64,000 bases of DNA, taken from positions 32,001 to 96,000 of the forward strand of contig JAVZJR010000004.1 in the NCBI GenBank assembly GCA_038870635.1, in the 5' to 3' direction. Below, one piece after another: positions 6,068 through 58,305 of this stretch (within the stretch, counting starts at the first letter, position 1; each line of letters begins with the position of its first letter). A model generated the notes under the pieces. The model made no database searches, was not told where the DNA came from, and was given only the letters and a program-made list of their open reading frames with translations. Source of the DNA: Candidatus Bilamarchaeaceae archaeon (GTDB lineage: Archaea > Micrarchaeota > Micrarchaeia > Anstonellales > Bilamarchaeaceae). Both the position numbers and the translations under genes were made by a program.

Positions 6068-6313
6068 ATGAAATTGTACTCTGTTTTATTTTTGGTTTTA
6101 GGTTTGCTTGTTTCTGTAGTAGTGGCGGAAAGTTGCGTTTCGAGTAGTGATTGCCCTGATGGTTCATACTGCTCCTATGGATACTGTGTTCCTTACTCGA
6201 GTAGCGGTTATGGGGATTATTACGACAGCAGTTCAAACACCACTTGCTGCTGTGGTGCTGCTTTAATATTACTTGGCCTCGTTGGAGCAATTTTTTATAA
6301 CGCAAAAAGATAA
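6068..6313 (+). CDS. Small secreted Cys-rich protein with C-terminal membrane anchor
   Basis: Signal peptide, CVSSSDCPDGSYCSYGYC module, then CCC + hydrophobic helix + basic tail. Confidence 0.75.
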   Translation: MKLYSVLFLVLGLLVSVVVAESCVSSSDCPDGSYCSYGYCVPYSSSGYGDYYDSSSNTTCCCGAALILLGLVGAIFYNAKR

Positions 6314-6942
6314 TGATGCAGCTCAAAAAAATTCTTCAAAAACTTAAACGGTCAGCGGTAGCTAAAATTGTAAAGCGGCGCATCCGCTCTTTTAAAAATT
6401 TTAGAAAAAAAAGCGAGAAAGAAATTTTCAAGGAATTGTGCTTCTGCATTCTCACGGCTAATTACAATGCTAAAGGAGCAATCAGAATACAGAAAAAAAT
6501 TGATGATGGTTTTATACTTCTAACACAAAAAAAACTTGCAAGTGCTTTGAGAAAGTTGGGCCATCGTTTTCCAAATACCCGCGCTGCTTATATTTGTGAG
6601 AATAGAAAATATCTCTCTTGTTTGAAATCTATATTTAATTTTAATGATGGTAAAAGCGCACGCGAGTGGCTTGTTAAAAACATTAAGGGGCTGGGTTATA
6701 AAGAAGCAAGTCATTTCTTACGAAACATAGGTTTTGATGATGTTGCCATAATTGATTTTCATATAATTGATGTACTCTCGCGTTATAAAATGATAAAAAA
6801 ACCTACATCTAAATCACTCTCAAAAAAAACCTATTACGACATAGAAAAAAAAGTAGAAGAGCTGGCCAAAGAAACTAATGTTCCTCTTTCTGAGCTTGAC
6901 TTGTACCTGTGGTATTTGGAAACTGATAAAATTTTTAAATAA
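6313..6942 (+). CDS. ogg: 8-oxoguanine DNA glycosylase / AP lyase (Ogg2 type)
   Basis: ELCFCILTAN, HRFPNTRA and KGLGYKEASHFLRNIG...AIIDFHI HhH motifs. Confidence 0.93.
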   Translation: MMQLKKILQKLKRSAVAKIVKRRIRSFKNFRKKSEKEIFKELCFCILTANYNAKGAIRIQKKIDDGFILLTQKKLASALRKLGHRFPNTRAAYICENRKYLSCLKSIFNFNDGKSAREWLVKNIKGLGYKEASHFLRNIGFDDVAIIDFHIIDVLSRYKMIKKPTSKSLSKKTYYDIEKKVEELAKETNVPLSELDLYLWYLETDKIFK

Positions 6943-6944
6943 AA

Positions 6945-7054
6945 AGCTGGGTAAGGGAATCGAACCCCTCTCTACCGCTCTCAGCAAATCATTGGCTTTT
7001 AGCCTCAGAAGAGCGATACTGCAGGCGGCCGCATAACCGATCTGCCAACCCAGC
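6945..7054 (-). tRNA. tRNA-Cys(GCA) with 39-nt intron at 37/38 (intron 6980..7018)
   Basis: Acceptor GCTGGGT/ACCCAGC with U73; anticodon arm GCCGC-CT-GCA-G|intron|A-GCGGT; T arm AGGGG-TTCGATT-CCCTT. Confidence 0.93.
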
Positions 7055-7112: not shown

Positions 7113-8210
7113 ATGGTTAAAACCGGGAGCATCGATCTTCCTCTTCACTTCTGTAAATGCCCCAGATGGCTTTTCAAAAGAATGAAAGAACTTAGCGGGG
7201 AGATAATTTTTGCTATAATTGATGAGTATGGAACAAAAGAACTATTGTTTCGCCTTTCCAATCCATTATTTTTTCAGGCTCTTGGTTGTGTTTTGGGTTT
7301 TGATTGGCACTCGAGTGGTTTAACAACTACTGTAAGCGCTGCACTAAAAGAAGGCAGTGGTAATGAAAGTGGGATTGCTTTTTGTGGTGGAAAAGGAAAA
7401 ACATCTCGCAAAACGCCCGAAGAGATAGAATTTAAGGCAAATGAGTTTGGTTTTTCTGATAAAAAAATTGAAACTCTGATTAAGGCTACACGATTGAGCG
7501 CAAAAGTAGATAATTCGTGCATCCAAGATGGTTACCAACTTTACCATCATCTATTTGTTTTTGATGAAGATGGCAATTGGGCTGTTATTCAACAAGGACT
7601 TAATGAAGATAGTGGGTATGCCAGGAGATATCATTGGTTTAACTCAGATTCTTTTGTTGATTCTCCTAAAGAGAGCATCATCGGAATAAAAAAACATAAT
7701 GTCCTCAATTTAGTTAGTGGCAAATCTAGAGAGGTAAGAAAGACAAGTGTTGACATCGTGAAAGATAATCCAGTCCATTTAAAGAACGAATTAAATTCTC
7801 AACAAACTCTTTTTGGGCATTTTGTTATGCCACAAAGACATGAAATACTTTCTCTTGATATCAATGAGCGCGATTGGAAAATACTCCATGAGATTTATGA
7901 ACTGCAACCAAAAGATTACGAAGAATTGGTTTCTTTGAAAGGAGTTGGGGGCAAGACACTTCGTTCTTTAGCGCTTCTTTCAAAGATAATTTATGGGTGC
8001 GAGGCAGATTGGGAAGACCCTATTAAATATTCTTTTGCGCATGGTGGTAAAGATGGTATTCCTTATCCAGTGGATAAAAAAAATTATGATAGTTCGATAG
8101 AGTTTCTAAGAAATTTAATAGAAGAAAGAAAAATAGGCGGAGAGAGGTATAAAGAAACATTGCGCCGTTTAGCAACTTTTTTTGATTTTTCTTATTTTAT
8201 TATCTTGTGA
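7113..8210 (+). CDS. DUF763 family protein
   Basis: DLPLH, GFDWHSSGLTT, QDGYQLYHH and FAHGGKDGIPYPV motifs. Confidence 0.9.
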   Translation: MVKTGSIDLPLHFCKCPRWLFKRMKELSGEIIFAIIDEYGTKELLFRLSNPLFFQALGCVLGFDWHSSGLTTTVSAALKEGSGNESGIAFCGGKGKTSRKTPEEIEFKANEFGFSDKKIETLIKATRLSAKVDNSCIQDGYQLYHHLFVFDEDGNWAVIQQGLNEDSGYARRYHWFNSDSFVDSPKESIIGIKKHNVLNLVSGKSREVRKTSVDIVKDNPVHLKNELNSQQTLFGHFVMPQRHEILSLDINERDWKILHEIYELQPKDYEELVSLKGVGGKTLRSLALLSKIIYGCEADWEDPIKYSFAHGGKDGIPYPVDKKNYDSSIEFLRNLIEERKIGGERYKETLRRLATFFDFSYFIIL

Positions 8211-47796: not shown

Positions 47797-47897
47797 TGCG
47801 GCTGCCGGGATTTGAACCCGGGTCATAGGCTTTTTTCGCTTTTAGCTTGGGAAGCCCATATCCTGACCATTGTCTTTTTTATCTAGACTACAGCCGC
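47797..47897 (-). tRNA. tRNA-Gly(CCC) with two introns (13 nt at 15/16: 47870..47882; 16 nt at 37/38: 47832..47847)
   Basis: GCGGCTG/CAGCCGC acceptor; TGGGC-TT-CCC-A|..|A-GCCTA; CCGGG-TTCAAAT-CCCGG; removing both introns leaves 72 nt. Confidence 0.9.
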
Positions 47898-57767: not shown

Positions 57768-58232
57768 ATGGAACTGAATGAGCGCGGCCTTTCTCTTTTT
57801 ACTTTATTTGAAAGTATAACTAGTGTAATGCCACGTGATTACGCCGAGGCAGAGGAGACTATAATTTTTTTAGTTGATCCTTTTCAGCTTGGTCGCTCTA
57901 TAGGAAAAAACGGTGTAAATGTAGATAAACTCAAAACAAAAATAAATAAGCGGGTTTTTGTTGTCGCTGATTCCGACGACCCCTCAACTTTTATAAGAAA
58001 TTTTTTTAGTAATCTTAAGATTTTGGCGATTGAAGAAAGGAATGTTATGAATGAGCGCTCTTTTTTAGTTTATTTTGATGAGAAGGAACGTGGTCTCGCC
58101 ATAGGCAAAAATGGTGAAAGAATAAAGATATTAAAAGAATTTCTTAAGAAAAAGTTCAATGCCACAGCACATGTTCGCACTCGTCGTGTGTTAGGAGAAT
58201 CCTCTTCAGCCGAGGTGGCGGAATCCGGTTAA
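57768..58232 (+). CDS. nusA: Archaeal NusA
   Basis: Two KH motifs, SIGKNG and AIGKNG. Confidence 0.92.
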   Translation: MELNERGLSLFTLFESITSVMPRDYAEAEETIIFLVDPFQLGRSIGKNGVNVDKLKTKINKRVFVVADSDDPSTFIRNFFSNLKILAIEERNVMNERSFLVYFDEKERGLAIGKNGERIKILKEFLKKKFNATAHVRTRRVLGESSSAEVAESG

Positions 58233-58305
58233 CGCGTACGCCTGGAGATTCTGCTAGGAAGCGTATCCCCTCACGGGGTTAGGAGTTCAAATCTCCTCCT
58301 CGGCG
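58209..58305 (+). tRNA. tRNA-Ser(GGA) with 12-nt intron at 37/38 (58248..58259)
   Basis: GCCGAGG/CCTCGGC acceptor with G73; TACGC-CT-GGA-G|ATTCTGCTAGGA|A-GCGTA; long variable arm CCCC-TCAC-GGGG. Confidence 0.94.

Follow-up and report, generated by a model that had tools for sequence, protein, structure and literature searches.

The question raised by the locus described here is whether the intron of a tRNA gene can act as a guide for the 2'-O-methylation of the very precursor in which it resides. The gene belongs to a Candidatus Bilamarchaeaceae archaeon (Micrarchaeota) and lies in the stretch of 64,000 nucleotides that was analysed as a whole, to which we refer as the window (contig JAVZJR010000004.1, positions 32,001 to 96,000). 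Coordinates are window positions unless preceded by a genome handle, G000 being the host genome. A first-pass annotation had proposed that the intron of this tRNA-Cys gene would be a minimal box C/D guide, with a single K-turn, directed at G39 of its own tRNA. As judged from sequence comparison, the intron module is confirmed as a real conserved element, and methylation would be its probable function.

The tRNA-Cys gene and the layout of its intron

The gene was called by ARAGORN at a relaxed score only, the default run having missed it in the window, and an Rfam scan of the window at gathering thresholds neither called it nor returned an sRNA match; the Rfam tRNA model run on the genome scores it at 42.5 bits. 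DNA contigs from three public runs of one hot-spring study span the gene with zero differences inside it, in a comparison that left out two runs that may be its source. The features of the gene are as follows:

6945-7054, minus strand: tRNA-Cys(GCA) gene of the Micrarchaeota type (ARAGORN relaxed score; Rfam tRNA)
7054-7019, minus strand: 5' exon
7022-7020, minus strand: anticodon GCA
6980-7018, minus strand: intron, 39 nt, at the canonical site 37/38
7018-7010, minus strand: guide, a 9-mer at positions -10 to -2 upstream of box D'
7014, minus strand: guide position -5, a C
7009, minus strand: spare U (position -1) between guide and box D'
7008-7005, minus strand: box D' CUGA, the non-bulged strand of the K-turn
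6994-7004, minus strand: canonical stem of 4 bp (7004-7001 with 6997-6994) and 3-nt loop
6993-6991, minus strand: 3-nt K-turn bulge, its third base a U
6990-6989, minus strand: tandem GA
6992-6986, minus strand: partial box C' AUGAUUU, with 5 of 7 consensus letters
6982-6985, minus strand: intron strand of the central helix of the bulge-helix-bulge (BHB), pairing with C32-C35 (7024-7021)
6973-6981, minus strand: guide target spanning the 3' splice junction (the final two bases of the intron and exon positions 38-44)
6978, minus strand: G39, predicted 2'-O-methylation site (N+5)
6979-6945, minus strand: 3' exon
6945, minus strand: U73

Every intron element read in the first-pass annotation lies where it had been placed, on the minus strand. 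From 5' to 3', the intron runs through the guide, the spare U, CUGA, the stem-loop, the bulge, GA, three bases, the BHB strand and two bulge bases, with the BHB strand at 6982-6985 doubling as a 4-nt linker from box C' to the guide target. The BHB central helix forms three of its four pairs, with a U.U at U33. As had been claimed for the 9-mer upstream of CUGA, the guide is complementary to its target, with nine pairs including one G.U, and its fifth nucleotide, C 7014, faces G39. Genome-wide, 873 strict K-turn-like hairpins were counted, three of them with a matching downstream cis target, and one of these three, in the tRNA-Cys intron, lies in a tRNA.

Regarding the surroundings of the gene, only two bases separate its end from the stop of a 209-aa gene in convergent orientation (6313-6942, plus strand), which presumably encodes a protein resembling 8-oxoguanine glycosylase, and a 365-aa gene (7113-8210, plus strand) is divergent from it; no connection with the intron was seen for either neighbour. 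The window also holds two other interrupted tRNA genes on which default ARAGORN is silent: a tRNA-Gly(CCC) with apparent extra segments (47797-47897, minus strand), and a tRNA, judged by eye to be Ser(GGA), whose anticodon loop holds an intron (58209-58305, plus strand).

Conservation of the K-turn among relatives

Whether the module exceeds chance is settled by its conservation in relatives. tRNA-Cys genes were sought by a pattern of the 5' exon, which found them in 142 of the 176 genomes of the host order; 136 of these genomes were taken, with 138 genes, of which 135 were parsed and three were not (G033, G039a and G173). The parsed set comprises 82 genes from the host family (72 with introns, 10 intronless) and 53 from other families (26 with introns). 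A K-turn detector that ignores the guide (it requires NUGA, at least 3 bp of stem, then NNU-GA) was positive in 29/72 host-family introns, distributed over 11 genera, and in 0/26 introns of other families, while shuffled introns gave a mean of 1.06 and a maximum of 5 in 1000 and the reverse strand gave 1/72, the module-bearing genomes being kin and these counts non-independent trials. In ten more host-family introns the guide retains its register next to a deviant box or stem (hereafter, variant modules); strict and variant modules are both absent from 33/72. The unparsed G033 also keeps the guide, with an insertion of about 125 nt ahead of the junction.

An alignment of the 25 shortest modules has 99.2% of its cells paired, for a structure drawn from the same sequences; 0 of 500 shuffles were as high, and slid registers gave 32-55%. 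The stem-loop varies among relatives in both sequence and length with its pairing kept, so that the stem covaries, and the TGA and bulge-GA motifs outlast complete stem-loop turnover in 11 genera. A single base separates the guide from box D in all 29 strict and all 10 variant modules, whereas all other segments vary in length. The GA stands 9 nt ahead of the splice site in 20/29 and 10-12 nt ahead in the rest, including introns of 79-131 nt. In one case, the decayed module of G002, the loss of box D goes with that of the -5 pair.

Register and covariation of the guide

The alignment of relatives suggested in the first-pass annotation as a check came out in favour of its proposal, with K-turn and guide complementarity both conserved, compensatory changes, and a fixed register on G39. 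When the guide is slid over the whole pre-tRNA, the best register puts position -5 on G39 in 29/29 module introns, with one tie. Positions -2 to -6 are Watson-Crick paired in all 29, -7 and -8 are paired in all, often as G.U, and -9 is paired in 17, whereas -1 forms a Watson-Crick pair with the junction in none. The resulting duplex is of 7-10 bp (9 bp here), and 12/29 end at 7 bp. Base 39 and guide positions -4 to -6 are invariant within the host family, and the N+5 register could therefore partly reflect common descent.

The most informative position is -3, which faces the last base of the intron as U:A in 24 introns, C:G in four and A:U in one. Set against position 37 of the mature tRNA, the same position would give 21 G.U, 7 Watson-Crick pairs and 1 mismatch. 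On a tree of Nop5 from 40 chosen genomes, a single-gene tree of 40 rows whose deep nodes are without resolution, well-supported branches force two changes for the C:G state, and the A:U state, found in one genome, adds a third, amounting to at least three independent changes. Since guide position -3 tracks the last intron base and not the mature G37, the selected duplex is that of the guide with the unspliced 3' junction. The target originally proposed, positions 36-44 of the mature tRNA, is refined by this covariation to the 3' junction of the precursor, at which the first-pass annotation had noted the same 9-mer; an excised circular intron acting on the mature tRNA would be the less likely route.

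These pairings were also found in held-out metagenomes, by means of a pattern that left position -3, the intron end and the stem free. It returned 24 loci, 22 of them distinct (3 identical to introns of the comparative set) and all in tRNA-Cys, and the 22 distinct matches are all Watson-Crick paired at both -2 and -3, with at least 3 bp of stem. The chance level comes from a looser pattern in viral contigs, with at least 113 loci, 99 of them distinct among the matches listed, which have the pair at -2 in 19/99, the pair at -3 in 20/99 and the stem in 5/99.

Two mutually exclusive folds

For the host tRNA-Cys precursor taken whole, energy minimization returns the guide fold. In constrained folding of the arm, the anticodon-stem fold is the more stable one in 26/29 introns, by a median of 3.8 kcal/mol (3.0 here), so that a bound protein would be needed to shift the equilibrium. 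The guide and splicing folds are mutually exclusive and differ by no more than a few kcal/mol. The intron alone has an unremarkable folding z-score of -0.35, as expected for a K-turn.

One K-turn and an incomplete box C'

At the level of sequence, the intron has the geometry of a K-turn, with a canonical stem, a 3-nt bulge containing a U, and tandem G.A. Box D' reads CUGA in 14, AUGA in 14 and GUGA in one of the 29 relatives, with UGA being required by the detector, and three genomes have box D variants with A for G, which resemble a non-standard K-turn still bound by L7Ae (PMC3985660, in part; papers so marked were available in part). The guide stands upstream of box D with an unpaired -1, a duplex of at most 10 bp and a conserved N+5 target. 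This arrangement is close to that of solved C/D RNPs, where spacer positions 2-11 pair and position 1 is unpaired (PMC9670817, in part).

Box C' is the divergent part of the module. The archaeal box C/C' RUGAUGA, with a G:C pair at 4b:4n, is absent from the tRNA-Cys intron, and this pair is strongly conserved in archaeal C/D K-turns (PMC5689011, in part). Among the relatives, box C' positions 6-7 are free, 4b:4n is Watson-Crick in only 2/29, and 3b:3n is U.U in only 18/29. The G at -1n was considered as a C/D signature and discarded, C:G at -1b:-1n being a general K-turn state (PMC5689011, in part).

A second set of boxes (terminal C/D plus internal C'/D') was searched for in the 29 introns, with an upstream RUGA in 2/29, long introns only, and a terminal CUGA in 6/29; many introns begin within a few bases of the guide. 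The terminal CTGA in the original reading of the intron is indeed present, and it overlaps the strand forming the splicing helix; with conservation in only six relatives, it was rejected as a second box D. The description of a guide with a single K-turn stands, there being no upstream box C or second K-turn. Because of these absences and the lack of conservation of the terminal CUGA, the tRNA-Cys intron falls outside the canonical bipartite family of archaeal box C/D sRNAs, as a putative natural half-mer. As an intron, it is of the archaeal BHB type (site 37/38, central 4-bp helix, 3-nt bulges) in a relaxed form; four Watson-Crick central pairs occur in 1/29 module introns versus 22/69 other introns.

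Guide machinery of the host and a similar kink in tRNA-Met

Genes for fibrillarin, Nop5, L7Ae and a splicing endonuclease are present in the host genome (859 kb, 89.55% complete). The endonuclease is a 389-aa frame with a match to the epsilon2 enzyme 4FZ2 (E 7.4e-127), a type able to cut relaxed motifs; a second frame with a tRNA endonuclease catalytic domain, of 175 codons, was also observed (G000:C2:102143-102667, plus strand; E 7e-10). The fibrillarin is 49.5-53.5% identical to those of four Micrarchaeota genomes and 41% identical to that of a Woesearchaeota genome, which points to Micrarchaeota as the phylum of the host, and Nop5 was matched in 166 of the 176 genomes of the host order. No tRNA-Trp gene was found in the host genome, at the above completeness, and in the host family the matches of a tRNA-Trp intron pattern were swamped by chance. 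Three stand-alone candidates for canonical two-box C/D sRNAs were seen (G000:C1:385378, plus; C2:77525, plus; C2:115756, minus), and rRNA is mostly absent from the assembly, with one motif match.

The elongator tRNA-Met of the host (G000:C1:157311-157481, minus strand; locus L290) also has an intron with one K-turn, whose position -5 falls on C34. In archaeal tRNA-Met, C34 is methylated to Cm under C/D guidance (PMC2584109, in part). The Met guide aims across the 5' junction and the Cys guide across the 3' junction. A pattern for the kink in tRNA-Met matches 87 of the 99 host-family genomes, many in a clear tRNA-Met context and some by chance, and the same kink is present in all 14 tRNA-Met loci among the matches listed. 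Downstream of the guide, L290 has a further stretch of about 47 nt in which the beginning of the 3' exon is repeated; it may be a second intron.

Distribution and losses of the module

Outside the host family, no module was found among the 32 matching of 371 genomes of the phylum. A covariance-model search of 151 phylum genomes gave strong matches solely at host-family tRNA-Cys genes, with six weaker ones not in tRNAs. Among the genomes searched, the module is thus confined to one family, within which it is patchy, with intronless genes, other inserts and the decayed module of G002. It is dispensable, because 33/72 family introns lack it and 10 genes are intronless. A clade mostly with C39 also lacks it, and a search for a Cys module aimed at C39 in the phylum of the Woesearchaeota genome (351 genomes) gave three chance-like matches, with a pattern that may miss divergent D-arms.

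Other types of insert were observed along the way. Several families have tRNA-Cys genes with C39 or U39 that are without K-turn and share a GCUCYRGG motif, a stem-loop and a purine-rich end (loci L199, L201, L198, L200, L203, L028, L221, L222, L023, L254, L255, L019, L258 and L259). Long introns (L172, L174, L021, L205, L017, L029 and others) look like tandem palindromic hairpins of T-runs and A-runs at 37/38. Palindromic inserts stand in front of the older module and, once, behind it, and similar inserts occur in the T-loops of several relatives' tRNAs.

Comparison with known guides and introns

The closest precedent is the guide in the euryarchaeal pre-tRNA-Trp (the 103-nt intron of Haloferax volcanii; sR50 of Pyrococcus), which, as in Cys, lies in a 37/38 intron and targets position 39 of its own tRNA (PMC7994747, PMC4090602, PMC2584109, all in part). 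The Haloferax position-39 duplex includes intron bases and implies modification before splicing, as would be the case in Cys. As the first-pass annotation had stated, the Trp intron guides both 34 and 39: it has C/D and C'/D' boxes with two guides, a median length of 65 nt and U39 as target, whereas the Cys intron has one K-turn, one guide, 35-50 nt (up to 131 with inserts) and G39. The tRNA-Trp intron has been called the unique archaeal intron-encoded guide (PMC4090602, in part), and the putative Cys guide extends this type of intron to one kink, another tRNA and target G39. Within DPANN archaea, the elongator tRNA-Met intron of Nanoarchaeum equitans likewise has C/D-like boxes and has been proposed as a guide; it differs in its 66 nt and its tRNA, and no target is stated in the accessible part of the source (PMC3491384). 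The relaxed-BHB tRNA introns of ARMAN-2 share the epsilon2 endonuclease type and the imperfect central helix (PMC3239211, in part; PDB 4FZ2); the tRNA-Cys intron of ARMAN-2 is of 13 nt, at 59/60, with no guide described in the accessible part of PMC3239211.

In architecture, the module corresponds to engineered half-mers, namely MMG4 and MMG5 (PMC9670817, in part), delta-CD and delta-C'D' (PMC7229835), and the hemi-complex (PMC1635284, in part). They share a 5' guide, box D, stem-loop, box C, 3' overhang, one K-turn, the N+5 rule and a duplex of at most 10 bp. The engineered RNAs are synthetic, have full consensus boxes and act on a separate substrate, whereas the Cys intron occurs naturally, its box C' is truncated, and a covalent link connects it to its target. 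Single-K-turn guides with L7Ae specifically methylate substrates of 8-11 bp in vitro (PMC9670817, in part; PMC7229835), and the 7-bp duplexes of 12/29 relatives are below 8 bp, the shortest substrate tried there (PMC9670817, in part). Hemi-complexes were active but non-specific in one study (PMC1635284, in part), which a later paper ascribes to an over-long duplex (PMC7229835). As for the product, Gm39 is a human tRNA modification with no known enzyme (PMC6412123, in part), and the accessible part of an archaeal tRNA mapping paper mentions neither Gm39 nor any result for position 39 of tRNA-Cys. Neither a guide in a tRNA-Cys intron nor a naturally occurring half-mer of archaea was found described in the open-access literature, to which the search was mostly confined.

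Proposed mechanism and alternative explanations

The explanation that we consider quite probable is that the module would be a natural guide of one K-turn (a half-mer of the C'/D' type), making Gm39 on the uncut precursor before splicing. As sequence and covariation show, a duplex of 7-9 bp joins the guide to the final two bases of the intron and exon positions 38-44, thereby opening the anticodon stem and hiding the 3' splice site. L7Ae would bind the K-turn, the C-terminal domain of Nop5 would dock, and fibrillarin would methylate the ribose opposite position -5. The RNA would then refold into the anticodon stem and relaxed BHB, from which the epsilon2 endonuclease would cut out the intron. 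The register, the covariation, the constant one-base gap, the genes for fibrillarin, Nop5 and L7Ae, and the Met kink at C34 support this reading, against which count the incomplete box C', the missing 4b:4n pair, the 7-bp duplexes, the dispensability of the module and the favoured anticodon fold. Action within the same molecule is slightly favoured over action on a second precursor, since the duplex is short and the distance from K-turn to junction nearly fixed, and tethering would offset the 7-bp duplexes. The benefit, for instance a stiffer C31-G39 pair, is a matter of conjecture. More tentatively, and with somewhat less than an even chance of being right, the pre-tRNA might be a self-methylating half-mer, both guide and substrate, with its target 7 nt behind the GA of box C' and with methylation gating the 3' splice site; together with the Met (C34) introns, it might represent a DPANN class of portable, re-aimable minimal guide introns.

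Among the alternatives, the one with most weight, albeit an unlikely one, is that of a structural switch in which L7Ae would bind without any catalysis, hiding the 3' splice site to delay splicing, or chaperoning the folding of the precursor. The incomplete box C' and the two mutually exclusive folds, a few kcal/mol apart, would suit such a switch, and covariation demonstrates pairing, not chemistry. A switch, however, gives no reason for exactly one unpaired base before box D or for a duplex limited to 10 bp, both of which are features of the Nop5-fibrillarin channel, nor for a tRNA-Met kink that aims N+5 at the known Cm site C34 from the other side of its intron. The same covariation bears on the possibility that the excised intron, linear or circular, would guide in trans, with spliced tRNA-Cys as its substrate or else a different RNA, for example the D-arm AGAGCG stretches of other tRNAs. 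In the host genome the guide matches mature positions 36-44 equally well and pairs 8/8 with one other tRNA-like gene (G000:C1:108616), and excised tRNA-Trp introns do act in trans (PMC4090602, in part); across relatives, however, position -3 follows the last intron base and not G37 or the D-arm, the mature tRNA offering mostly G.U there. Moreover, archaeal tRNA-Cys may have a wyosine-type base at position 37 (PMC7668247, in part), which would hinder the pairing, and we regard this route as very improbable.

Least probable of all, by our estimate, is a relic without function, in which an inverted copy of the junction would stay matched through quasi-palindrome template-switch repair beside a decaying K-turn. 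It would fit with the loss or decay of the module in many family members and with the palindromic inserts that introns of this tRNA-Cys family collect. Template switching would, nevertheless, also perfect the G.U at -7/-8 and position -1, both of which stay imperfect, and the TGA and bulge-GA motifs persist through stem-loop turnover; the conservation of the K-turn, the module alignment and the held-out metagenome test already disfavour it.

Significance for archaeal guide RNAs and tRNA introns

Reviews describe natural archaeal guides as bipartite. Half-mers are known to function solely as engineered RNAs, with conflicting results on their specificity. A conserved and covarying natural half-mer of 35-50 nt, as the tRNA-Cys module is predicted to be, would bear on whether one K-turn suffices in nature and, being part of an intron, on the cis or trans action of intron guides. 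For the archaea that carry it, a guide role would offer a selective reason for retaining some of their tRNA introns.
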